Source: Nanobdellota archaeon
GTDB taxonomy: Archaea > Nanobdellota > Nanobdellia > Woesearchaeales > GW2011-AR9
NCBI GenBank assembly: GCA_030697505.1
Contig: JAUYPX010000018.1
Coordinates: 3,265 to 67,264 of the forward strand
Length of the DNA: 64,000 nt
Direction: 5' to 3'
In this document: positions 6,222 through 56,919 of the stretch, in pieces
Position numbering within the stretch: position 1 is the first letter of the stretch
Layout of the letters: the number at the start of each line of letters is the position of its first letter
Notes under the pieces: generated by a model
Databases searched by the model: none
Told to the model about the DNA's origin: nothing
Seen by the model: the letters and a program-made list of their open reading frames with translations, nothing else
Made by a program: the position numbers and the translations under genes

Positions 6222-6989
6222 TGCTGCTTCAGCAATAATTTCTGCATAGATCTCTTCTATCTCTTTACCTTGCGACAAGAGTTGATGGATGAAACTAAAA
6301 GCAAGATTATGCAGACCATTTTCTGCCGGATGTTCAGTGATGATAGCTTCTCCTAAGTCAGCGATATTGTGTTCCTGAATAATTTTCATCCAAAGCAAAG
6401 AAAAAGCATAGGCTTTGGCTTCCTCATCATGCTGATTTGGCAGGGTTTTAGTCAAGACGTGGCCCAACTCATGGCCGATAGTGAGCATCACTCTTCCTAA
6501 CGTATCGTTGAGGATAAAAATTTCTGAGAGCAATCCTTGCTGGCCGCGATTCAGCGATAAGCCGATGGTGCCCGATGAAGGAGCGATCTTGCTGAATTCT
6601 TCTTGATTCAGTATGCTCATTTTAATATTAGCAGGAAACTCCTGATGGCAGATTTTTTCAAAAGCTTCTTCCACGAATTCGCGCACTTCTTCTGCCTTTC
6701 CGACAAAAGCTCCTTCTTTTCCGGGCTTAAGGAACGTATCCGGAACAAAATAGTACTCTGGTTGGATGCTTATGAAGTTATAATTTTCTTTATTTATTGG
6801 ATAAGAAGATAATTTCTCTTTCTCAATTGAGGAATAGGAAAAAATAGCATCTCGGGAAGGTATGAACATGCCATCGTTATATGATGCTGGAGGTGCGGAG
6901 ATGGAGTAAAAAGCTTGGGGGGAAGAAGTATAATTAGATGTGCTTCTGGTGATATATTCTAATCCGCTATACTGTGACCCATGATACAT
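6192..6989 (-). CDS. ImmA/IrrE-family (DUF955) zinc metallopeptidase
   Basis: HEXXH in TIGHELGHVL, followed by the E..A..FA..LL segment (EEAKAYAFSLLW) typical of ImmA/IrrE. Confidence 0.5.
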   Translation of the reverse strand: MYHGSQYSGLEYITRSTSNYTSSPQAFYSISAPPASYNDGMFIPSRDAIFSYSSIEKEKLSSYPINKENYNFISIQPEYYFVPDTFLKPGKEGAFVGKAEEVREFVEEAFEKICHQEFPANIKMSILNQEEFSKIAPSSGTIGLSLNRGQQGLLSEIFILNDTLGRVMLTIGHELGHVLTKTLPNQHDEEAKAYAFSLLWMKIIQEHNIADLGEAIITEHPAENGLHNLAFSFIHQLLSQGKEIEEIYAEIIAEAASFHGVLLIP

Positions 6990-7394
6990 AACTTTGTTGT
7001 TAAAGGCTTTCAGTAATTTAAAGAAAATCCTGAAAAGCAGCTATCCCCAGCCCTAAAGGGCGGGGATTTACGCAAGAAAAGTGACAGCGATCACTTTTCT
7101 GCGCAGAAATGAGATATTCTTCGCATTTCTTGCGCCGCTTTTCCGAGACGGATTTTCTAAAACAAGAAAAGAAACAAAGATTTCTTTTCTGTTCAGAAAT
7201 AAAGTAGTTTCTTTATTTCATGAATCAAAAATAGCGAAATCCATGCGAGCATTCACTCGCATTCGCACAGAAAGACGACGATCTTTCTGGCGTCCAAGCA
7301 AAGTCGTTGCTTTGCTCAGGACATCCCTAAACATAAATGTTAGGGATTTCTGCTTTTTTGATTTAAGCTTTTAGGAAAAACGGGGACAAAAAAG

Positions 7395-22334: not shown

Positions 22335-22847
22335 TTATCTCCCATAGGCATGAGTGAAGGAATTAAGATATGTTTTTATCTTGTTATGCAGATCTTCCAC
22401 ATCACTCTTAAGCCAGGTCTCTGCTTTGCGATAATGCTCTTTAAAGAAATATTTTTCAAAGAGGATGCTCATGAACCAGTATAAAGGCTTTTCACTCCAT
22501 TTATTCTTACGGTCGCTGATAACATAGCCGTCAAAGACAACCCGCAGCGTGCCCTGGCTGGTTTTGATGACCGTGCTGCCGGCTTGAACATCAACATCCT
22601 TTAGATCAATGACATTCATCTTGATAGAGATGATCAGCTTGTAATAATCAGTGATATTTTTCCAGGGCTCTAAGATGATGCGCATCTGCTTTCCGGAAGA
22701 AGTTACCGTGACTTGGTTCATCTTTTCATACCAGTCGTAGCCTTTTTCATAAAAGAAAGAAGATATTACGTTGTGCAGTTCATCTAGATTGAATAACCCT
22801 TCGTAGGTAAATTTCAGGCGGTCCACAACCAGGTAGCGTTCAACCAT
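22335..22847 (-). CDS. member 2 of the unknown paralog family (tandem with member 1)
   Basis: Collinear similarity to 21748..22332; abuts member 1 on the same strand. Confidence 0.4.
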   Translation of the reverse strand: MVERYLVVDRLKFTYEGLFNLDELHNVISSFFYEKGYDWYEKMNQVTVTSSGKQMRIILEPWKNITDYYKLIISIKMNVIDLKDVDVQAGSTVIKTSQGTLRVVFDGYVISDRKNKWSEKPLYWFMSILFEKYFFKEHYRKAETWLKSDVEDLHNKIKTYLNSFTHAYGR

Positions 22848-22896
22848 TTTTAGAAGGAGAGAATTTAGGCTTATAAATTATACTGTGGGGAATACA

Positions 22897-23017
22897 GGAA
22901 AGCCGCCGCCATGGCCAAGATGCGTCGAGCTAAGAGAGACTTTAGCCAAGGTTAAGTTACTTTTTCCTCCAGTGTTTAGCGAGAAAAAGGCGAAGGGCGC
23001 GGCCAAGGCGGCTTTCC
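22897..23017. ncRNA. candidate structured RNA, copy 1 of a ~125 nt element closed by an 11 bp terminal helix
   Basis: 5' GGAAAGCCGCC pairs perfectly with 3' GGCGGCTTTCC. Internal blocks (GCCATGGCCAAGA, GAGCTAAG, GTT(T)AAGTT, GAAAAAGRCGA) are shared with the second copy at 56794-56919. Confidence 0.35.
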
Positions 23018-23084
23018 GTTAGTATTTATCCATTCCACCATCTAAATCATTAAAAGTTTGTTTTTAATCTTTTAAGAGTCATGA

Positions 23085-23156
23085 AAGTGCGGGAAAGCGT
23101 CTCACCTCGCTCTAAAGAGCGAGGCTTGAAAAGAGACGCTTTCTAATCCCCGCACT
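23085..23156. repeat. about 70 nt nested perfect hairpin in a structured non-coding island
   Basis: Outer stem aagtgcggg/cccgcactt, middle stem aaagcgtctc/gagacgcttt, inner stem cctcgctc/gagcgagg with a taaa loop. Confidence 0.7.
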
Positions 23157-23238
23157 TTGTGACACAAGAAATCAAACGAAGATTTGATTTCTGTGCAGAA
23201 GGACAATGTCCTTCTTGCATAAATAGGCTAGAAAGCAT

Positions 23239-23325
23239 TCGCACAATAAAGCAACGACTTTATTGGCGCATGAGATCAGGAAACTACCCGATTTCAGCGC
23301 AGAAATAAAGTAGTTTCTTTATTTC
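23239..23325. repeat. two AATAAAG-N6-7-CTTTATT hairpin modules (23239-23270 and 23301-23325), diverged members of the structured repeat family seen at 28.6 kb and 40.3 kb
   Basis: cagaaataaagtagtttctttatttc is shared verbatim with 7194-7222 and 40373-40397; gcacaataaagcaacgactttattggc parallels 40476-40500. Confidence 0.7.
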
Positions 23326-23534
23326 TTGCGTCCCAGAAAAATCGTTGTTTTTCTGTGGACATCCTCGTCTTAAAAGACGAGGCTTTCTGCCTATTTAATG
23401 TAAATAAAGAGATAACCTATTCCCTAGACCACAAGAAGGCTGAGCCTTCTGTGCCGAAGGGATGTATCCCTTCGAGCACCAAAAACTTTAATAAGCACAA
23501 TAAAATCGTAAGCCAAAGGGGTGCGTGAAAAAAG

Positions 23535-24170
23535 ATGGTGTCGTTTTTAAAAAGCCTGTTCAAGAAACTGTCATCGAATCCTTTTAGTAAAAAGAGCCAT
23601 ATCAAATTAGGATTGTATGGGCCTCCCAATGGAGGTAAGTCTACCTTAGCCAATAAGATCTGCCAGGACTGGCTGGGAGAAGAGATGTCTACGGTTTCTC
23701 ATATCGCGCACGAGACCAGAGAGATCAAAATCAAGGAGCAGGTCAATATCAAGAACAAGAAAGGCAAGGAACTGACTTTTTCTCTGGTGGACACGCCCGG
23801 TATTTCCACTAAAATCGATTATGAGGAATTCATCCGCAAAGGATTGAAGAAAGTTGAAGCGAAGAAGCGGGCCAAAGAAGCGACCAAGGGAGTGATCGAC
23901 TCCATTAAATGGCTGGATGATATGGATTCAGTAGTAGTGGTCTTAGATGCGACCAAGGATCCTTATTCTCAAGTTAATATTACCATCATCGGAAACTTAC
24001 AGGCCCGTAATATTCCGGTGCTTATCGCCGCTAACAAAGTCGATTTAAAAAAAGCAGGCATTGATACCGTCAAAGCAGCATTTCCGCAGTACAAAGTGGT
24101 GGGAATTTCTGCCAAGTATGGTAAAAATATCGAAGAGTTTTATGAGCAGCTCTTCACTCTTACCAGCTAA
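23535..24170 (+). CDS. small GTP-binding protein of the archaeal GTPase/DUF2073/DUF2072 trio
   Basis: P-loop GPPNGGKST, G3 DTPG, G4 NKVD. Confidence 0.6.
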   Translation: MVSFLKSLFKKLSSNPFSKKSHIKLGLYGPPNGGKSTLANKICQDWLGEEMSTVSHIAHETREIKIKEQVNIKNKKGKELTFSLVDTPGISTKIDYEEFIRKGLKKVEAKKRAKEATKGVIDSIKWLDDMDSVVVVLDATKDPYSQVNITIIGNLQARNIPVLIAANKVDLKKAGIDTVKAAFPQYKVVGISAKYGKNIEEFYEQLFTLTS

Positions 24171-24278: not shown

Positions 24279-24674
24279 ATGGTTACGTTTAAGTTTGTAC
24301 CGTATTATGAAATTGAAGGTCTTTCTTCCGCTAAGAGAGTCAATAAACTGCTCAAGATTGTCAAAGAAGACAAGATCGTGATCATGGAAGGACGCCTGCG
24401 TAAGCAGGAAGAAGCCGATTTAATAGAAATCACCATGGAAGAGATTTCCCCCAAGTTTAAAGGGATAGAGTTAAGCGTCATCTATCCCGATAAGGATAAA
24501 CAGGATGCATTGCAAAAACTCAAAGGGATGATGGCGAGTACGTTGCTGGGTGACCGGCAGGGACTTACCATCGTAGGCCCAGCTTCAGTGGTAAAAAAGA
24601 TTGAAAACAATCCTGATAAAATAGAATTATTTACTCGGGAAAGTAGAGCTAAGCAACGGGTAAAGCGCTCATAG
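24279..24674 (+). CDS. DUF2073-family protein (archaeal, usually adjacent to a GTPase and the DUF2072 Zn-ribbon protein)
   Basis: Size and position between the GTPase and the Zn-ribbon protein; assignment by gene order and overall pattern. Confidence 0.4.
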   Translation: MVTFKFVPYYEIEGLSSAKRVNKLLKIVKEDKIVIMEGRLRKQEEADLIEITMEEISPKFKGIELSVIYPDKDKQDALQKLKGMMASTLLGDRQGLTIVGPASVVKKIENNPDKIELFTRESRAKQRVKRS

Positions 24675-24730
24675 GAAGTATATAGTGTTCAATAGAAACT
24701 TATAAAAATAGTAAAATCTACGGTTTCTCT

Positions 24731-25132
24731 ATGCCACATCAATGCGTCCGTTGCAATACCTTCTTTCCTGATGGAGCTGCCGAGATCCTCAAAGGATGCA
24801 GCTGCGGCGCACGCTTGTTCTTTTATATCAAAAAGAAAGATATTGAGTACGGCAAAGAACTGCTTACCAACCTTAGTGAGGAAGATAAGATCAACATCGA
24901 AAAAGATGTGGCAGAAGTGCTGAGCATCCGGGAAGAAGAGCCTGATGCGCCGGTAATTCTTGATCTAGAATCTATCCGCGTGGTAAAGCCCGGGAAATTT
25001 GAAATCGATCTGGTGCATCTGTTCAAGAAAGATCCGTTGATCATCAAGTTGGAAGAAGGAAAATATATGATTGATCTTCCTCAGGCGTTCAAGAAAATGA
25101 AGGAAGATAATGAAGAGAAGGAGAAGAAATAA
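24731..25132 (+). CDS. Zn-ribbon-containing protein (DUF2072-like)
   Basis: N-terminal C4 ribbon (CVRCNT...CSCG) followed by a conserved acidic region; completes the conserved trio. Confidence 0.45.
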   Translation: MPHQCVRCNTFFPDGAAEILKGCSCGARLFFYIKKKDIEYGKELLTNLSEEDKINIEKDVAEVLSIREEEPDAPVILDLESIRVVKPGKFEIDLVHLFKKDPLIIKLEEGKYMIDLPQAFKKMKEDNEEKEKK

Positions 25133-26167: not shown

Positions 26168-27010
26168 ATGAAATATATTAATTTTAACCTAAAAGAACAG
26201 CAAGATTTCATGAAAATAGTTAAAACTAATTCTAATCTTACCTGGAAAGCAATTGCTTATTCTCTTGGGATAAGTAGAAGTATGATCTTTTGTTATCTAA
26301 ACGGAAAATCAAAGATTTCAAAAGAAAACTATGAAAAGCTGTCTGAAATGGCAAAAATTGAACCCCAGTACAATTCTTATGTAATCATAAAGAACAAAAC
26401 TCAAAATATTAACACTCCTAAGCAAATAGATGAAAAACTGGCTGAGTTTATAGGATTATTAGCTGGAGATGGACATGTCTCTAAAATAAATTATGAAATA
26501 TCTGTTACTTGTCATAAAAAATTGGATAAAGATTATGTAAATAACAGAGTAAGTAAGTTATTTCTCGATTTATTTTCAATAGACGCTAAAATTAGAGAGA
26601 GTAAGGAAAACAATGTAGTAAGGTGTTCAGTTCATTCAAAATTGCTTTCAGAATACTTAACCACCAATTTTCTAATACCTCGTGGCAAAAAGAAAGGGAA
26701 ACTTCATATTCCTACACAAATCAGAACTGAAAAAGAACTTTTAATTCCTTACATTAGAGGTTTATTTGATACTGATGGAAGCATTTATTGTCGTAGAAAG
26801 AAAAGCTTAGTCGTTTCAATAATAAGTAGGGATCCAGTATTTCTCAACGAGGTGAAGAATGTTTTAACAGAATTAGGTTATTCTCCCAGCGTGAGCGGAA
26901 AAAACTTATATATTTACAATCAGGAACAAGTCAAGAGATTTATGATTGAAATAAAACCATCAAATCTAAAACATCTTAATAGATACGATAATTTTATAAA
27001 TAAAGTATAA
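26168..27010 (+). CDS. free-standing double-motif LAGLIDADG endonuclease-like protein with an N-terminal HTH domain
   Basis: Two LAGLIDADG-type motifs (FIGLLAGDGHV and RGLFDTDGSI) separated by about 100 aa. The N-terminal 60 aa resembles an HTH (IAYSLGISRSMIFCYLNG). Confidence 0.6.
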   Translation: MKYINFNLKEQQDFMKIVKTNSNLTWKAIAYSLGISRSMIFCYLNGKSKISKENYEKLSEMAKIEPQYNSYVIIKNKTQNINTPKQIDEKLAEFIGLLAGDGHVSKINYEISVTCHKKLDKDYVNNRVSKLFLDLFSIDAKIRESKENNVVRCSVHSKLLSEYLTTNFLIPRGKKKGKLHIPTQIRTEKELLIPYIRGLFDTDGSIYCRRKKSLVVSIISRDPVFLNEVKNVLTELGYSPSVSGKNLYIYNQEQVKRFMIEIKPSNLKHLNRYDNFINKV

Positions 27011-32159: not shown

Positions 32160-33347
32160 TTATCCCTTTAAAGCCAGGTAAAGCTCTCGCATCTTTCTAT
32201 TCTTTCCTAGTTTTTCCAATGCTTGCGCTTCCAGCTGCCTGATCCGTTCACGGCTTAATCCATGCCTATCGCCTATCTGCTGCAGTTTGAGAGGTTCTTC
32301 ATCAAAGCCAATACGTTTATTGATAATATCCAACTCCATGGGGGTTAAAATTGATTTCAAAGTACGGTGAACGATCTCTTTTTGTTGATCTCGAAATACC
32401 TGCTCCAAAGGTGAAGCTGAAGCTTTGTCCTCAAGGACGGAATGAAAACTTAGGCCTGGAAAGTCATCTTCCTGAGTTTGAATTTTGTCTAACGAAAAAG
32501 GTTCGGCATCCAGCAAGGCATCCACCACTACTCTAGCAGGAAATTTAGTAGCCTTAACTATCTCTTCGACGCTTACATGGTCCTGGCCCTTTTTCTGTCG
32601 CAGCTGGATATGGGCCGTTTTTACTTTGTTAAAAACTGCTTCCGCCTGTACAGGTATGCGGATAGTTCGGCTGGTGTTGCTGATGGCCCGGCCTATTTCC
32701 TGCCGTATCCACCAAGTAGAGTAAGTAACAAATTTGAAACCTTTTCTATAATCAAAACCATCTACGCCTCGATAAAGACCTTCGTTTCCTTCTTGGATAC
32801 AATCAAGCAAACTCATTTTACCGCGGCGGGCATATCTCTTAGCGATAGAAACAACAAAACGTAAATTGTGTTTCGCAAGTAAGTCTCTCGATTCTTCCCA
32901 GACGGAAACCAGTTCTTCCAACTGTTCCCGTTTCTTATTGATTTTGCTGAGACTTGATCTGGAACGCCCATAAAGTACCTGCTCTTCATCCTGATTGAGT
33001 TTTTGCTGATAGGCCCCTACCACCGTTTTGTAGGTGCTGGTAAAGGGGACAATCTGACGCAATACTTCGATACGCCCATAGAATTTCTTTTCTGAAGTTG
33101 CTCTGACAGTTAAAAGGCGTTTCACTGCCTGTTTATTTTTCTTCTCCTCTTGCGGCAGCTGATCCAGAAAATAAGTTGTTAAAAATGCCGGGTCGGATCG
33201 GAATACCGTCCAGAGAATCTTGTTGCCATTTCGCTCAATCTGCTGAGCTGCGGCAATTTCTTCATCACGATTGAGAGGAGAATATCCTCCAATTTCTCGT
33301 AAATAAGTCTCAATGTTCTTACCGGTTACAGTAGGTTTTATCATCAT
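32160..33347 (-). CDS. bacterial-type RNA polymerase sigma-70 family factor (regions 1.2, 2, 3 and 4 all present)
   Basis: Region 1.2 YLREIGGYSPLNRDEEIAAAQ. Region 2 NLRFVVSIAKRYARRGKMSLLDCIQEGNEGLYRGVDGFDYRKGFKFVTYSTWWIRQEIGRAI. Region 3 TIRIPVQAEAVFNKV. Region 4 HTH TPMELDIINKRIGFDEEPLKLQQIGDRHGLSRERIRQLEAQALEKL. Confidence 0.8.
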   Translation of the reverse strand: MMIKPTVTGKNIETYLREIGGYSPLNRDEEIAAAQQIERNGNKILWTVFRSDPAFLTTYFLDQLPQEEKKNKQAVKRLLTVRATSEKKFYGRIEVLRQIVPFTSTYKTVVGAYQQKLNQDEEQVLYGRSRSSLSKINKKREQLEELVSVWEESRDLLAKHNLRFVVSIAKRYARRGKMSLLDCIQEGNEGLYRGVDGFDYRKGFKFVTYSTWWIRQEIGRAISNTSRTIRIPVQAEAVFNKVKTAHIQLRQKKGQDHVSVEEIVKATKFPARVVVDALLDAEPFSLDKIQTQEDDFPGLSFHSVLEDKASASPLEQVFRDQQKEIVHRTLKSILTPMELDIINKRIGFDEEPLKLQQIGDRHGLSRERIRQLEAQALEKLGKNRKMRELYLALKG

Positions 33348-51054: not shown

Positions 51055-54000
51055 TTATACTACTCCAAAGGTGCCGCCGACCGCGTCACAGTAATTCAAT
51101 CCGCCATTCTTGAAGTCGGCGATGACTGTGGTCAGGAAGCCGGCAACACTTTCTATGATTCCTATAATATCCCAAATAAAGTAGGCGTAGCTGCACGCTG
51201 ATGAACCCGTATTACTGACTGAACATAATGAACTGCATGTTACTATCGTTAAGGTATGGGCTATCGCAATAGGATCAGCTAAGGCCTTAGCCAATCCATT
51301 AATTATCTGATCGAAGAATTGGGAGAAGGGCAGGATATACCACAATTCTCCTACCACATATTTACAGACCAGCATATCTTCTAATTCTTCACACATGCTT
51401 ACTGTCGCCAATCCTGATCTGACTTCATTCTCCAGGCAGACAATTTTCCTACATTTGATCTGCCTGAGCTTATCAAGATTCTTGATGATTCCAGGAATGC
51501 ACAAACCGGCAATAGAAAGGAAGAGATTGTCGCGGATGTCCCGGGCAGGAAATGCTTCATTTTTTCCCAAAGGATCTCCCGGTGCTTTGAGCAATTCTAT
51601 TTTGTACACTTCAAGGATAAATGACTGCCATTTCCCATACCAGCCTAGATCAGCTTTCCCAGTCGGACGACAGGATAACACTTGAACTATTTTATCAATA
51701 ATATCGGAACCTTTACGCACTCCTTCTGATGCGCCGCTGAATCCAAAACAAGCGGCAGTCCGTCCAGCTTCTCCAATGCCGGGAATAACTTTAAAAGATT
51801 CAGTCCCTAATTTTCCTGCACTCTCAAATACGCCGATGATGGTTACTACGATATTGTAAATCTGCACTAAATAATCCACATACTTCAAAATATTAGCTAA
51901 TACACCAATTATATCCCAGGCAGTATTGATATCGTCACGAGCATCTTTGATCACTTGCTCTAGATTCTCATCCTGCGCTCCTAAGGCGGAAAAGGCAAAC
52001 GGCACCAGCACTTTCACCTGCTGCACTTCTGCTGCTCTGATGGCATTCTTGCCGACCTGAGAAAATATTTTCAAGGTACAGACATATTCGACTTCCTGTT
52101 TTACAAATTGGGTCTCTTCTTTCTGTCCGATCTGGAACATGGAACGCCCGTCAAACGGCTCAAACTCCACGATCACATTCGGCGTTGGCGCATAATCGCC
52201 GGCAGCAGATACGCCGCCGTATAATATAGCGCGGCTGATCTTCGGTGAATTGCTGTTAGTCTCCTCTTTCGCTGCTGTTTCTTTACCTGCAGCTTTCTTA
52301 CTGTCAGCAGTAGGAACCGCACAATTGACTAATTGGATATCCAGCGCTTTTACGTCGCTGAGATCAGAACTCAAAGATACTTTGAATGGCAATCGGGTAT
52401 AGGTAAGCTGGGTAGTATCTAAATCAATAAAGGCATTGGCGCCGCCGGCAGGAACAACTTTGCGCACTTCCCAGAAGTCAGGGTTTTCTTCCGTCGATAA
52501 TCCCAGCAAATCGAGAGTGATAGAAGCTTGCTCTTTGCCGCTCTTGAATCTCTTGGCATTCTTAGGCTCATTTTCTGATAAAGGCCAGCTCACCGCATCA
52601 TTTCCGGCGGTATCCTGCACTTGAACCGGAATTTCTACCCCGGATTCAGGACCACTTTTGATAGGCTCAGTCTCCAGCGCACATTCCCAGTGCCCTTCCA
52701 TCCGTTTACAATCCTGATCGGTAAAGATAACCCAGCCATCTTCGTCAATAAAATCATTGGCCGGATATTTATTCTCTGCGTCCAACAAGAGATCCTGGAC
52801 ATTCACTAAAACCCGCAGGCCGCTGCTTTCCGAGGCGCGCAAGACAATCTTCAGTTTATCATTGCTTTGAAAATAATTTTTATCGCCAACTTCAGAGACG
52901 CCGAATATTTCCACCGCTTCTACTTTCGGACCGGTGTTGTCGACCACAAATTCATATTCCGGCGCAGCGCCTTCGTTGCCGACGTTATCTTCAAATCGGG
53001 ATAAGCCGAAGGTTAATACCCCTTCATTGACATTTTCATCTACATCCCAATAGCATTCTAAAACGCCGGCCGTCTCCTGGCAGGCAGTCGGCTCAGCAAG
53101 ATTGCTCAGGCCGAAGCCGACTAAATTAGCGCGGATGCCTTCTTTGCTTATGCCTGCGCCTTGGTCATCAGCTCGCAAAATAATTCTATTCTCGCCGTCT
53201 TTCAAATGACTTTTTCCTTCAAACTGCCTGGCGGTGCCAAAGAACTTGATGCTCGGAGCAGAATTATCGACTACAAAAGTAGAAGATAAACTTTTCTCAG
53301 CCGCATTGCCTTTGGCATCCGTAGCTTTTACTAAGATCGCTATGCTGCTGGCAGGATCAACTTTCACATCCTTCCAGGTGCAATGCCAGAGATCATCGAT
53401 ATCGGCATCAGCTTCACAGCTGGCGGCATCGCCGTCAAGATCAGCCTGCTGAGAGTGCCCTATCACCACAGGAACACTTTTTTCCACTACCTCAACTACA
53501 ATATCGGTGGAAGAGGCAAACTCCCCGATGAATTTGCCAAATTTAGTGAAATTTAATTGGTTGCCGATCTGCGGCTTGATAAAGTCAGCAAAAAATGATA
53601 CCGAAGAGCTGAAGGAGACATGGCCTAAATTATCTTCAGCGCGGATCTTCAATTTTTTAATTCCATCACCGCTTAATTGCTGGGACTGCAAAATTCCTTC
53701 AAAGCCAGCATCATTAAGGTAACTAAAGGTTTCTTTTCCTTCAGGAAGGTCGATAGCCTGAAGAACATTGGCAGTATCGCTGTCGATAATATCAATTTTC
53801 TTTAATCCGGCAGAGGGAAAACCTTCTTTTTTATCATTCACGGTGAAATCAAGCTTGACTTTCCCGTCTTTATCCTGGCTTACTTTTCCCGGAGAGAAAA
53901 AAATCTGCGGAGCTGAGCCGTCTGCTTTGATCACTTCGCCGGCGGAAGCGCTCTCTTGTTTCAAGGCGGCATTGAGGAAAGAGTAAATCACTTGGAAGGC

Positions 54001-54351
54001 ATATTCTCCTTCCTGAATTCCATCAGTAAGCGGACTGATATATTTACACAATACTCCTAAGGTGCTGGGCGAACAGGAAGTGAAAGGAGCCTGATTATCG
54101 CCGATCTTAACTTTCACATCTTCCGGCTTGACGCTGGCATTACTGGTTCCTGCACCTGAGATCAACGCTTCCACGGTCCAGACGTCGCCTTGCGCATCAA
54201 TATGTTGCTGAAGTGCTGCTTCACCTTCATTTTTGGTGATCTGCACAGATGAAGCCAAAGCACTGGCAGAATACACCGGCATGCTTAGGACTAGCAGTAC
54301 CATAAACAAACCAGCCATGCTCCAGATGTTTTTTGCGTTTTGTGATTTCAT
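51055..54351 (-). CDS. giant secreted protein (1098 aa), hypothetical surface or adhesion protein
   Basis: Signal peptide, long beta-rich repeats, and a Cys-rich hydrophobic C-terminal region. Confidence 0.45.
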   Translation of the reverse strand: MKSQNAKNIWSMAGLFMVLLVLSMPVYSASALASSVQITKNEGEAALQQHIDAQGDVWTVEALISGAGTSNASVKPEDVKVKIGDNQAPFTSCSPSTLGVLCKYISPLTDGIQEGEYAFQVIYSFLNAALKQESASAGEVIKADGSAPQIFFSPGKVSQDKDGKVKLDFTVNDKKEGFPSAGLKKIDIIDSDTANVLQAIDLPEGKETFSYLNDAGFEGILQSQQLSGDGIKKLKIRAEDNLGHVSFSSSVSFFADFIKPQIGNQLNFTKFGKFIGEFASSTDIVVEVVEKSVPVVIGHSQQADLDGDAASCEADADIDDLWHCTWKDVKVDPASSIAILVKATDAKGNAAEKSLSSTFVVDNSAPSIKFFGTARQFEGKSHLKDGENRIILRADDQGAGISKEGIRANLVGFGLSNLAEPTACQETAGVLECYWDVDENVNEGVLTFGLSRFEDNVGNEGAAPEYEFVVDNTGPKVEAVEIFGVSEVGDKNYFQSNDKLKIVLRASESSGLRVLVNVQDLLLDAENKYPANDFIDEDGWVIFTDQDCKRMEGHWECALETEPIKSGPESGVEIPVQVQDTAGNDAVSWPLSENEPKNAKRFKSGKEQASITLDLLGLSTEENPDFWEVRKVVPAGGANAFIDLDTTQLTYTRLPFKVSLSSDLSDVKALDIQLVNCAVPTADSKKAAGKETAAKEETNSNSPKISRAILYGGVSAAGDYAPTPNVIVEFEPFDGRSMFQIGQKEETQFVKQEVEYVCTLKIFSQVGKNAIRAAEVQQVKVLVPFAFSALGAQDENLEQVIKDARDDINTAWDIIGVLANILKYVDYLVQIYNIVVTIIGVFESAGKLGTESFKVIPGIGEAGRTAACFGFSGASEGVRKGSDIIDKIVQVLSCRPTGKADLGWYGKWQSFILEVYKIELLKAPGDPLGKNEAFPARDIRDNLFLSIAGLCIPGIIKNLDKLRQIKCRKIVCLENEVRSGLATVSMCEELEDMLVCKYVVGELWYILPFSQFFDQIINGLAKALADPIAIAHTLTIVTCSSLCSVSNTGSSACSYAYFIWDIIGIIESVAGFLTTVIADFKNGGLNYCDAVGGTFGVV

Positions 54352-54356
54352 TTTCT

Positions 54357-56732
54357 CTATTCAAATATTGGTTCTAATTGCGGCCGTAACTTTTGAGATA
54401 AATTTCCCAGCTCCGCCATGGTGTTCAAGTCTTCTAAGATACGCACATGTTCCTGTTCGGGAACTCCTTCTAAATTGAAAGTAAGGACATTGAAAGTGAT
54501 CTTCCCGGCGCTGTAGAGCTGCTCCGGAGTGACCGTGAGATAGGTCTTCGGCTGATCCCATTGCAATCTTCCTGATAATAATTCATCGATAGCCTGCTGC
54601 TCATAAGTAAAACAGGTGATTAGGTTAGGACAGCGCTTTTCTTTAGGAATAATAAGAGGTTTTGAACTGGTCACTAAAGAAGTGACTTCATACACACCGG
54701 GGACTAATTCTAAAGAAGCAGTACCGTCTCCAGTCACCGTTGCAGCAGAAGAAAATTCTTCACTGAAAATTCCCGGAAGCGTATCGGAAACGCGCTTGAG
54801 CATGACTACAGCAGTTTCTTCTTTCGCAAGCGGCTTAGCCTGATTCAAAAATGACCAACTATGCTGCTCATGGAGAGATTCAGGAGCATAGGTATAGACA
54901 GAATTTCCGGGAGCAGCAAATAATCCCTGGGTGAAACATTCCCGATCCTGTCCCTCTTCATCAGCGATGCATTTTTCTAAACTCTTTTTACGAACGGACA
55001 TATTTACAAATACTTTTTTGTGCAGAGGAACAACTACGTCGGGAACCCCGGCAACTGCATAGCCGATCGTTCCGGTGCTTTCTCTGAATCTGTAAGTATC
55101 GACAGGATAAAAGCTGGTTAAATATTCTGATTTGACAAAGGAAGCGACTCCGCCGTAGACGGCAGGATATTTGCTTTCCAATACGCCGTGATTATCGGTG
55201 CTTCCCATCTGGCAATCATCTTGTTCAGGGATAGAGAATCCAACCTGTACTGCTTCTAAAGGCTTAAGCTCGCTGCTGTCTACGACCACAGTTTTTACCA
55301 ATCCAGTGTTGCGCTTGTCCGGATCGCAGACCATGCTGGGCTGCAATGCCGCTATCGGGGGAGGCTGGGTATATCCTTCAATAGGGACTTGATTGTTACG
55401 GAGATTTGCTTCTAAGGCAAAAGCAAAAGTGTATCCTCTGCCTTCAAGAGCATTAGGATCGCGAAGGGTAACTAAGACCGGATAACTTATATCGTACGTG
55501 GAATAATAACGATTTATATCAAGTGGTATTTTTGGCATGGGGGGAACTAGAGGGCCAATAAAAGTGCTAGGCTCGATATTGCCGCCCTTGTCATTCATAT
55601 CAAAATAGGTATTCCAGCCAAAATAATCAAAGTTGACATCCATTCCCTGTGCGGTCTCCAAAGGAAGAATCATGTTATCATAATGTTTCTGGTAAAGGTC
55701 GCGCAGGCCAAGGATAGCCCCTTCTTCCTGCGAGTATTCAAAGCGGTAGAAATTAGTGCTTCCCAAATAGCGCAGCAATGGAACACTGGAAGACAACAAG
55801 CTTTCTGTTTTCAATTTGACCTCGGATTCCGCCCAGACCACCGGAACCAGAGAGTTAAACGTCATCTGTTCCATGGGCGGCAGGCGAGTGTGATCGACAC
55901 CGGCGTAAGCAGTGATTAAGTCTAAAGCCTGTAATTCTAAGAAGCTGTGATTCTTTTCCACCGCAGCAAGTTCTGCAGCTGCATCATACATCTGTTTCAA
56001 GCGGATCGGCACAGGAACATAAAATTGATTCATTTCCGTCTCGGCATCACCTTTGCTGGCTTCAAGATCCATCTTCAGCCAGAAATTCACGCTTTGATCG
56101 GCGACCGTGACTTGCACTTCTTTCAATTCTTTGGAGCCTTCTTCCAGAGCAGGCGCTTCTATGGTAAATCCTTCGCTCTGCAGAGCAGCATAGTTGTTTA
56201 AGCATTCGCCGATATTTTCTTCTGCAAACCTGGACAATTGCGCTTCAATACTTAATTCAGGATCTTCGCGGGCATATAAAGCCGGCCTTTTAGAAGAATA
56301 CGATACCTGCGGATTGGCGTTGGGCAGAACGTTGTAATGCCAATAGGGAACTTTGATCGGCTCTAAATCCAGGCCATCGGTATCAGTAGGATCGGCAGCG
56401 GAATATTTCCCGGCTAATTCCGGATAGATGTAGCCGCCCTGCTGGCCTAAGACTAACAAGCCCCGCCTTCCTATCTGGGCCAGACAATTTTCTGTATACA
56501 ATTGCAGCGGCTGGAATTCCTGAGGGACAGCAGCGACAATGGGTTCGCCGGCAGCGGTAAGCTCTTCTTTGGTAGTGACTTTAGTGATATACAGAATTCC
56601 CGAAAAAACGAATAAAACGATGATGCCGATGATGATAAAAATAGTGACCTGTCCCTGTTTAGCCGGTGGAAAGATTTTATGATTAAAATTACTACTAAAA
56701 GTACTACTAGAGCTACCTCTTTTTTGCTTCAT
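54357..56732 (-). CDS. large (791 aa) protein with an N-terminal archaeal class III (type IV pilin-like) signal peptide
   Basis: N-terminal KQG followed by QVTIFIIIGIIVLFVFSGILYI fits the [KR][GA] then hydrophobic-helix prepilin pattern. Immediately upstream of the giant protein on the same strand. Confidence 0.45.
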   Translation of the reverse strand: MKQKRGSSSSTFSSNFNHKIFPPAKQGQVTIFIIIGIIVLFVFSGILYITKVTTKEELTAAGEPIVAAVPQEFQPLQLYTENCLAQIGRRGLLVLGQQGGYIYPELAGKYSAADPTDTDGLDLEPIKVPYWHYNVLPNANPQVSYSSKRPALYAREDPELSIEAQLSRFAEENIGECLNNYAALQSEGFTIEAPALEEGSKELKEVQVTVADQSVNFWLKMDLEASKGDAETEMNQFYVPVPIRLKQMYDAAAELAAVEKNHSFLELQALDLITAYAGVDHTRLPPMEQMTFNSLVPVVWAESEVKLKTESLLSSSVPLLRYLGSTNFYRFEYSQEEGAILGLRDLYQKHYDNMILPLETAQGMDVNFDYFGWNTYFDMNDKGGNIEPSTFIGPLVPPMPKIPLDINRYYSTYDISYPVLVTLRDPNALEGRGYTFAFALEANLRNNQVPIEGYTQPPPIAALQPSMVCDPDKRNTGLVKTVVVDSSELKPLEAVQVGFSIPEQDDCQMGSTDNHGVLESKYPAVYGGVASFVKSEYLTSFYPVDTYRFRESTGTIGYAVAGVPDVVVPLHKKVFVNMSVRKKSLEKCIADEEGQDRECFTQGLFAAPGNSVYTYAPESLHEQHSWSFLNQAKPLAKEETAVVMLKRVSDTLPGIFSEEFSSAATVTGDGTASLELVPGVYEVTSLVTSSKPLIIPKEKRCPNLITCFTYEQQAIDELLSGRLQWDQPKTYLTVTPEQLYSAGKITFNVLTFNLEGVPEQEHVRILEDLNTMAELGNLSQKLRPQLEPIFE

Positions 56733-56793
56733 TCTATCAGCTATGAGGAAAGAATGAAGGTATATAAAGATTACTAAAGCTCAGGCTTATTTT

Positions 56794-56919
56794 GAAAAGT
56801 CGCCGCCATGGCCAAGAGGCGAACCGAGCTAAGCTAGGCGTAAGCTAAAAGTTTAAGTTTCTTTTTCTTACTTTATTCAAACGGGAAAAAGACGAGGTGA
56901 GCGGCCAAGGCGACTTTTT
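56794..56919. ncRNA. candidate structured RNA, copy 2 of the ~125 nt element
   Basis: 5' (G)AAAAGTCGCC pairs with 3' GGCGACTTTT(T). Relative to copy 1 the helix differs at paired positions (C to T together with G to A), preserving pairing. Internal conserved blocks are shared with copy 1. Confidence 0.35.

Follow-up and report, generated by a model that had tools for sequence, protein, structure and literature searches.

The window, by which we mean the whole 64-kb stretch of DNA analyzed here, encodes OapB/OapC, prefoldin, NMD3, a Tyw1-type radical SAM protein, and an archaeal-type IleRS. It holds two related elements, referred to as W1 and W2, each next to a divergent gene. The 170–amino acid (aa) protein encoded beside W1 has an exact counterpart in a MAG named "Nanoarchaeota archaeon," and homologues of both neighboring genes carry the source labels Woesearchaeota or Nanoarchaeota. 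Since the host is a DPANN archaeon, promoters are expected to be of the TATA/BRE type. The features of the two loci are listed below; P1, P1b, P2, P3, and P4 designate the helices of the elements.

22335..22847, − strand: divergent neighbor gene of W1, 170 aa, no family match
22871..22878, no strand assigned: TATA-like box TTATAAAT, between the ATG of the 170-aa gene (22847) and P1 (22897)
22897..23017, + strand: W1, P1-bounded core module, 121 nt, interior type A; covariance model score of 115 bits
22897..22907, + strand: W1 P1 5′ strand GGAAAGCCGCC, partner at 23007-23017; 11-nt perfect inverted repeat with covariation in the family
22908..22921, + strand: W1 conserved 5′ core, consisting of bulge GCCA, P1b TGGCC (partner at 23001-23005), and bulge AAGAT
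22922..22926, + strand: W1 P2 5′ strand GCGTC, partner GGCGC at 22996-23000; P2 covaries across the family
22960..22989, + strand: W1 P4 hairpin read from the sequence, CTTTTTC, 16-nt loop, GAAAAAG
23001..23017, + strand: W1 3′ core, consisting of P1b GGCCA, a bulged A, and P1 3′ strand GGCGGCTTTCC
54357..56732, − strand: divergent neighbor gene of W2, 791 aa, Woesearchaeota-specific, first of a conserved pair with 51055-54351
56761..56768, no strand assigned: TATA-like box TATATAAA, centered ~32 nt from the ATG (56732) and ~29 nt from P1
56794..56919, + strand: W2, P1-bounded core module, 126 nt, type A
56794..56804, + strand: W2 P1 5′ strand GAAAAGTCGCC, partner GGCGACTTTTT at 56909-56919
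56805..56818, + strand: W2 conserved 5′ core, GCCA, TGGCC (partner at 56903-56907), AAGAG
56819..56825, + strand: W2 P2 5′ strand GCGAACC, partner GGTGAGC at 56896-56902, with a 2×2 internal loop
56861..56891, + strand: W2 P4 hairpin, CTTTTTC, 17-nt loop, GAAAAAG

The preliminary description had reported two diverged copies of one element at 22897-23017 and 56794-56919 of the + strand, and both positions were borne out. Their blocks share the same order, with a mean column identity of 83% when the copies were aligned together with ~15 to 20 nt of flank per side, and the window contains just two occurrences of the 17-mer CGCCGCCATGGCCAAGA, compared to 0.03 expected. The terminal inverted repeats of W1 and W2 are the 11-bp P1 helix, perfect or near-perfect. 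The compensatory change claimed for this closing helix was recovered as well: between W1 (GGAAAGCCGCC/GGCGGCTTTCC) and W2 (GAAAAGTCGCC/GGCGACTTTTT), the C-to-T change on one strand and the G-to-A change on the other convert the C-G pair at position 7 to U-A. Position 2 is also compensatory (G-C to A-U), and position 1 changes from G-C to G-U. Two further details apply to copy 1 only: three GCCAAG motifs are present in copy 1 but two in copy 2, and hairpin-rich neighboring DNA is found next to copy 1 (23084-23387), whereas copy 2 occupies a short gap between two ORFs. The + strands of both copies fold more stably than their dinucleotide shuffles (z = −3.1 for W1 and −2.8 for W2); the result is less clear for the − strands (z = −2.6 and −1.3, respectively). 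A covariance model search did not find a third copy in the 64-kb window, and no tRNAs were found in the window.

Several features of the surroundings are recorded here in their own right. The 500 nt of noncoding, hairpin-rich DNA downstream of W1 (23020-23535) include a nested perfect hairpin of 75 nt (23084-23158) and three smaller ones (23167-23192, 23301-23326, and 23358-23387); the sequence of the 23301-23326 hairpin (AGAAATAAAG...CTTTATTTCT) recurs beside the element in locus L133. The origin-associated proteins OapB and OapC are encoded next to each other (24279-25132 and 26168-27010), with an HTH + LAGLIDADG protein nearby, and a replication origin may be located close to the hairpin-rich region. 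The − strand at 51055-56732 encodes the 1098-aa and 791-aa proteins, which match no Pfam family. Their gene pair adjoins MetRS and is kept in the Woesearchaeota relatives examined; one homologue is labeled a glycine zipper family protein. On this contig, otherwise archaeal (Woesearchaeota), the − strand at 32160-33347 encodes a full-length, 395-aa RpoD-like sigma-70 protein with regions 1.2, 2, and 4, which scores 211 bits against NCBIfam RpoD.

From the two copies initially described, the search for further homologs led to a family of ~25 members on Woesearchaeota/Nanoarchaeota contigs. A scan of reference genomes with a loose pattern returned mostly coding matches of GC-rich bacteria, L059 being the sole true relative among the matches listed, while a stricter scan of metagenomes returned ~22 true relatives on contigs of 36 to 45% GC, many of them from 0.1-µm groundwater filtrates. 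Scans of viral sequences produced chance matches only. The covariance model, built from 21 members, recovered all 21 and added three diverged members without the exact search motifs (L189:7145-7297, L151:1122-1273, and L188:1432-1579). Since the invariance of GCCGCCATGGCCAAG...GGCCAAGGC among the metagenome matches was imposed by the search pattern, these three members, found without the motifs, matter. They retain a P1 that is complementary but quite different in sequence (GUUAAGUCUGCC/GGCAGACUUAAC; GGGCAGGUGGC/GCCACCUGCUC), along with the GGCC/GGCC helix and blocks of the interior, GCUAAGC and GUUAAG among them. Elements are 121 to 153 bp long, with two copies in the 64 kb analyzed here. An all-against-all comparison of neighboring ORFs revealed no protein family consistently linked to the element.

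The idea that the structure is a novel one was upheld by Rfam searches, in which neither copy matched a family, be it 5S rRNA, Y RNA, a ribozyme, or a HEARO/omega RNA. There was no match at the gathering score in the whole window, nothing relevant around W1 at E-values up to 10, and no match on five related loci (types A, C, and D) at E-values up to 1. A number of known structures were also considered and rejected. The size of the element and the GUUAAG block are suggestive of 5S rRNA, which was excluded by the missing Rfam match and by absence of the element in relatives. On inspection, the P1/P1b and P1b/P2 bulges lack the tandem G-A pairs required for a K-turn; a bulge-helix-bulge splice site does not apply with both large bulges on one strand; and the three-way junction (GAG / A / CGAAG) does not fit the hammerhead core CUGANGA / GAA / H. 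A small ORF starting at the Kozak-like GCCGCCATGG would have 14, 9, and 4 codons in W1, W2, and L059, respectively, and is not conserved; the ATG of the conserved GCCATGG block opens 4 to 14 codons and no conserved ORF. A retron noncoding RNA (ncRNA) was rejected as well: inverted repeats are present, but the neighbors vary, and no shared neighbor family or reverse transcriptase was seen. An integron attC site was rejected, as the copies are 34 kb apart and form no array, and their ends are GARAA...TTYTC rather than the R-box consensus GTTRRRY.

Single-sequence folds yield the following layout. P1 (11 to 12 bp) is followed by a GCCA/A internal loop (4 nt/1 nt) and by P1b (UGGCC/GGCCA), inside which a 5-nt bulge, AAGAN, precedes P2 (5 to 10 bp). 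P2 encloses a junction with P3, which is irregular and often has a GUAA loop at its tip, and P4, a 7- to 9-bp helix with a 13- to 20-nt loop. P1 ends in a T-run (T5), and further T-runs follow. The conserved 5′ core of W1 is identical in W1, W2, and L059, and the W1-type P4 hairpin is also predicted in the folds of W2, L134, L166, L202, and L149. The helices themselves take many forms: P1 occurs in at least eight different complementary versions in the family, P2 in ~12 unrelated complementary versions (e.g., GUAACCU/AGGUUAC, GGUGCC/GGCACC, GCGCGU/ACGCGC, and GUGAGUGCGG/CCGCACUCAC), and P4 stems vary by type (CUUUUUC/GAAAAAG, GUGCCGC/GCGGCAC, AAAUUUC/GAAAUUU, and CCUAUCCUC/GAGGAUAGG). The interior topology is not uniform, as type C copies and L151 are devoid of P2.

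To quantify covariation, we used a model-based alignment of 24 members; since it was fitted to the structure, the counts depend on that fit. Paired cells amounted to 93.9% in this alignment compared to 81.6% in shuffles, and double changes were found in 11 of 20 pairs (58 cells). The observed values were not attained in any of 500 shuffles, and the signal collapsed when the partner columns were shifted by 1 to 3 positions. A plain MAFFT alignment gave a covariation picture that agrees with the model-based one. There were eight G-U/U-G cells and no A-C cells, which favors folding of the + strand; the mean folding energies of the + and − strands (−45.2 versus −43.7 kcal/mol) did not differ significantly (p = 0.11). 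Overall, the proposed selection on structure is supported: the fold is under structural constraint, and P1, P2, and P4 covary strongly. Covariation of the closing helix is in part also expected from terminal inverted repeats. That selection acts on the fold at the RNA level is a conclusion we hold with moderate confidence.

In 11 independent metagenome loci, the module is located inside a larger element with outer inverted repeats GGCTCTGTAG...CTACAGAGCC, and in all 11, 9-bp direct repeats, exact or with one mismatch, abut these outer repeats. The span between the target duplications is 152 to 153 bp in 10 loci and 187 bp in L151. L159 and L198 share an identical core, inserted at different sites and flanked by different duplications. 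Adjoining the copy in L202, at 772-1670, is a ~900-bp insertion sequence with termini GGCTTAGTAGAAAGTC and GGCTCTGTAGAAAGTC. The protein encoded is a 265-aa DDE_Tnp_1 transposase; NCBIfam transpos_IS5_2 is its top match, with a score of 126.6 bits that falls short of the cut-off of 140. The outer termini and the 9-bp duplication presumably place the mobile form near the IS903 group of the IS5 family, whose terminal repeat is GGCTTTGTTGAATAAATCG. Because the interior of the L202 insertion sequence lacks the GCCATGGCCAAG core, the core is cargo rather than a remnant of that insertion sequence. No shell-only mini-elements were found. In the window, each copy consists of a "naked" core with P1 at its ends: outer inverted repeats are not recognizable at W1 or W2, a 9-bp target duplication was not found at W1, W2, or L059, and there is no transposon with matching termini in the window. 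The element had first been presented as a candidate structured ncRNA; instead of a conserved, single-function host ncRNA gene, we find a dispersed mobile repeat, judging from the outer repeats, the 9-bp duplications, and the IS5-family partner in relatives. It is very likely that W1 and W2 are copies of this mobile repeat family.

Other arrangements were seen in individual loci. L189 contains two family members in tandem (6973-7297): downstream of a TATA box comes a 152-bp copy with a 9-bp duplication, which was inserted in front of an older, diverged copy whose P1 is different. When L198 (1775-1927) is compared to L159 (2067-2219), the asymmetric outer shell is seen to hold the core in the opposite orientation. 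Apparently, the module can flip or insert in either direction by virtue of its 12-bp P1 arms. The DNA of L205 and L198 is too diverged for an empty-site comparison.

The gene order around W2 (MetRS, small ORF, 791-aa gene, 1098-aa gene) is conserved. Among relatives whose 791-aa protein is 56 to 84% identical, the element is present at the W2 locus only in L247 (81%) and is absent in seven distinct loci (L248/249, L250/251, L252/253, L254, L255, L256, and L257). At the W1 locus, it is absent in L258-L261 (82 to 84% identical proteins), where a 107- or 152-aa ORF lies instead between the TATA box and the hairpin-rich region. As the element is missing in close relatives at both loci, both window copies are lineage-specific insertions, a pattern that contradicts the reading of the locus as a conserved host gene. 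Compared to the element-free sites in L257, L255, and L256, the ends of the W2 inserted segment coincide with P1 to within 1 to 2 nt. Two candidates for decayed outer repeats, AGCTCAGGCTTATTTT upstream of W2 and CTGTGG upstream of W1, were rejected, since both are host flank that is present in relatives without the element.

The more distant L059 (40% identical) has a copy at the W2-equivalent place, in the same orientation and with interior type B. Since this interior is nearly identical to that of mobile type B copies, it points to an independent insertion or a replacement. The L059 contig, titled "uncultured Methanosarcinales archaeon," shares the window gene order (1098-aa, 791-aa, MetRS; 35 to 43% identity) and may be mis-binned or mislabeled. 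In the L247 copy, an A-U pair of the W2 P1 is replaced by G-C, a compensatory change, and P2 has been rebuilt from GCGAACC/GGUGAGC to the fully paired GCUUUCU/GGAAAGC. This copy has also lost 15 nt of P3/P4, with CAUGG changed to CUGGG and CCAAGG to CCGAGG; the loss and the changes in these "invariant" motifs are as expected of neutral decay. At the exact position of copy 2, L255 (1131-1201, reverse strand) contains the 16-nt AGAGGGAACTTAGTGG, which resembles the two ends of the element minus its interior and may be the footprint of an excision or hairpin deletion (AGAGGGAA/CTTAGTGG).

Both window copies lie next to a TATA-like box. The TTATAAAT box is host sequence that is also present in relatives without the element, and the TATATAAA box is conserved in all relatives, with or without it. 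In 18 of 21 loci, the element has a divergently read gene upstream, and in tandem-gene contexts, which are the informative ones, divergent orientation prevails by 8 to 1, both statistics resting on naive ORF calls. The ATG-to-core distance is 66 to 67 nt in six independent loci, which puts the first P1 base 54 to 55 nt from the ATG. By eye, a TATA-like box located outside the target duplication and centered 25 to 30 nt upstream of P1 could be seen in at least 10 of 20 loci. An AT-only TATA-like 8-mer centered at −31 to −24 from P1 was found on the 5′ side in 8 of 24 cases and on the 3′ side in 0 of 24 (p = 0.004). The first P1 base is about 28 nt from the TATA center. In L198, where the shell is reversed, the orientation of the core towards the TATA box is unchanged, and the older diverged copy in L189 was also originally ~29 nt from the center of the same TATA box. 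In Thermococcus and Haloferax, divergent start sites are located 52 bp apart around a shared TATA box (bioRxiv 10.1101/2020.01.31.928960). Part of the constant TATA spacing could come from purifying selection, as insertions that disrupt a promoter would be removed where intergenic regions are very short. The orientation bias is not explicable in this way because P1 is symmetric. From this geometry, we infer that the module would be transcribed from the divergent side of host promoters, from the start of P1 to the end of the U-run; we grade this transcription model lower than selection at the RNA level.

Our results are best accounted for, with somewhat better than even probability, by a nonautonomous mobile family with a structured RNA-like module that is inserted beside host promoters and transcribed from a shared TATA box. 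The unit is the ~125-nt module comprising P1 ending in a T-run, the GGCC/GGCC helix with its bulges, a variable P2, P3, and P4. In its actively transposing form, this module resides inside a 152-bp MITE whose outer repeats match the ~900-bp IS5-family insertion sequence. The naked cores of the window are lineage-specific insertions, each located directly upstream of the core promoter that serves a divergent, apparently leaderless gene. A shared, roughly symmetric TATA box would start divergent transcription at about the first P1 base, and transcription would stop at the U-run that ends P1. The predicted product is a ~125-nt + strand RNA whose fold would be under selection. Within this reading, a selfish or neutral passenger RNA is favored over a host regulator.

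The main competitor, appreciably less probable, is a purely DNA-level MITE whose helices serve or result from transposition (as single-stranded DNA or a cruciform) and whose transcript is incidental and functionless. The outer repeats, the 9-bp duplications, and the matching IS5-family element are all accounted for by such an element, as are the overlap of P1 with the inner part of the terminal repeat, the different interior topologies of the types, the similar folding energies of both strands, the decay of the L247 copy, and the differences in presence between close relatives. However, P2 and P4 covary though they are not terminal repeats, and the interior is not palindromic. Interior hairpins are no known need of a DDE transposase, the insertion sequence with the same termini does without such a core, and naked cores with other P1 sequences keep the fold. 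Furthermore, neither the 8-to-0 asymmetry between G-U and A-C cells nor the orientation bias to the TATA box, including that of the flipped L198 core, is expected for a function in double-stranded DNA.

A benefit to the host is assumed by a different, improbable explanation, in which the element is an exapted cis-acting terminator or insulator, its hairpin and U-run guarding compact genomes against divergent or read-through transcription. Its place directly beyond the core promoter of a gene, the T5 end of P1 with the T-runs after it, and eight loci in which it has a promoter on one side and the 3′ end of the next gene on the other would all suit this role; yet a symmetric P1 terminates in either orientation, which leaves the orientation bias unexplained, the conserved interior is superfluous for termination, and the corresponding loci of close relatives function without the element. 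A conserved trans-acting host ncRNA gene with two paralogues (e.g., a divergent 5S rRNA or a Y-RNA-like RNA) is largely refuted and very improbable. Despite a length of ~120 to 126 nt, a closing helix, a three-way junction, covariation, and a TATA box at a suitable distance, such a gene is at odds with the absence of the element at orthologous loci (56 to 84% identical flanking proteins), with its embedding in transposon termini elsewhere, with the missing Rfam match, including 5S (E up to 10 around W1 and up to 1 on five loci), and with the exchange of interior types at one locus (type A in W2 and type B in L059). It is also conceivable, though doubtful, that the P1-bounded core is itself the replicating unit and moves through its transcript (RNA-dependent mobility) or that it represents an undescribed class of transposon-borne functional RNA. 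The DNA inserted at W2 does extend from the predicted transcription start, the first P1 base, to the predicted terminator U-run; transposon termini and a target duplication are missing there, and cores face a host TATA box in a constant orientation even where the shell is reversed. If true, the former would imply that a small structured RNA of DPANN archaea moves by an RNA-mediated (retro-type) or otherwise RNA-dependent route, and the latter would be, e.g., a guide or regulator of transposition.

The nonautonomous mobile family with a transcribed module, which we prefer, has several partial counterparts. Correia elements (CREE/NEMIS) of Neisseria are nonautonomous, ~100 to 160 bp long, and have terminal inverted repeats and target duplications (PMC10969869). 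Like the elements described here, they are mostly intergenic near gene starts, form long hairpins if transcribed, are invertible, and affect or use neighboring promoters (PMC10969869). Correia elements contain an IHF site and sigma-70 promoters of their own and give rise to transcripts on which RNase III acts, whereas the present element is archaeal, has no internal promoter that could be seen, and apparently borrows the host TATA box. Its core is branched, with covarying P2 and P4; a Correia element is one long hairpin. Structured small RNAs from transposon-derived repeats are known from Coxiella (QMITE1/2; Cbsr3, Cbsr13, and Cbsr16), and these, together with the enterobacterial ERIC/RU repeats, are likewise transposon-derived and yield structured RNA (PMC10969869 and PMC5896051). 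Unlike the QMITE and ERIC RNAs, which were detected experimentally, the present RNA is predicted from sequence, and its module is separable from the shell, occurring naked, flipped, or with an unrelated P1.

The presumed likeness to the IS903 group comprises the 9-bp duplication and the outer repeats GGCTCTGTAGAAAAAGTCG, which resemble the IS903 terminus. The partner differs from IS5/IS903 elements in being ~900 bp long with a 265-aa transposase scoring below the NCBIfam cut-off, and the window copies lack these termini. The absence of a target duplication in the naked cores is compatible with IS200/IS605-type palindromic elements (PATE/REP); however, those have subterminal hairpins and an associated HUH (Y1) transposase and make no target duplication, and the clear mobile form here has 9-bp duplications. 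Eukaryotic SINEs are similar in being dispersed, multicopy, small RNA-like modules, and the ends of the W2 insert are the predicted transcript ends; in contrast to SINEs, the present element has no link to a reverse transcriptase, no A-tail, and no internal promoter, and its clear mobile form has DNA transposon termini.

A Woesearchaea genome is among those with the highest MITE densities in a survey of archaea, and MITEs of DPANN archaea have so far been counted in bulk only (PMC11602168). The family described here is set apart from the bacterial MITEs above by its archaeal host, its apparent borrowing of host TATA boxes, its branched covarying core, and the separability of that core from the transposon shell. 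For annotation, it serves as a warning that a covarying helix present in two copies can be a repeat family and not a host ncRNA. Compensatory change preserves a small branched fold that is carried in a DNA transposon, and the copies lie at a constant distance from TATA boxes of the host, a place at which one would expect divergent transcription. Should transcription be confirmed, the family would be a clear case of an archaeal mobile small-RNA gene that borrows bidirectional host promoters and would provide a ready marker for insertion polymorphism in Woesearchaeota populations.
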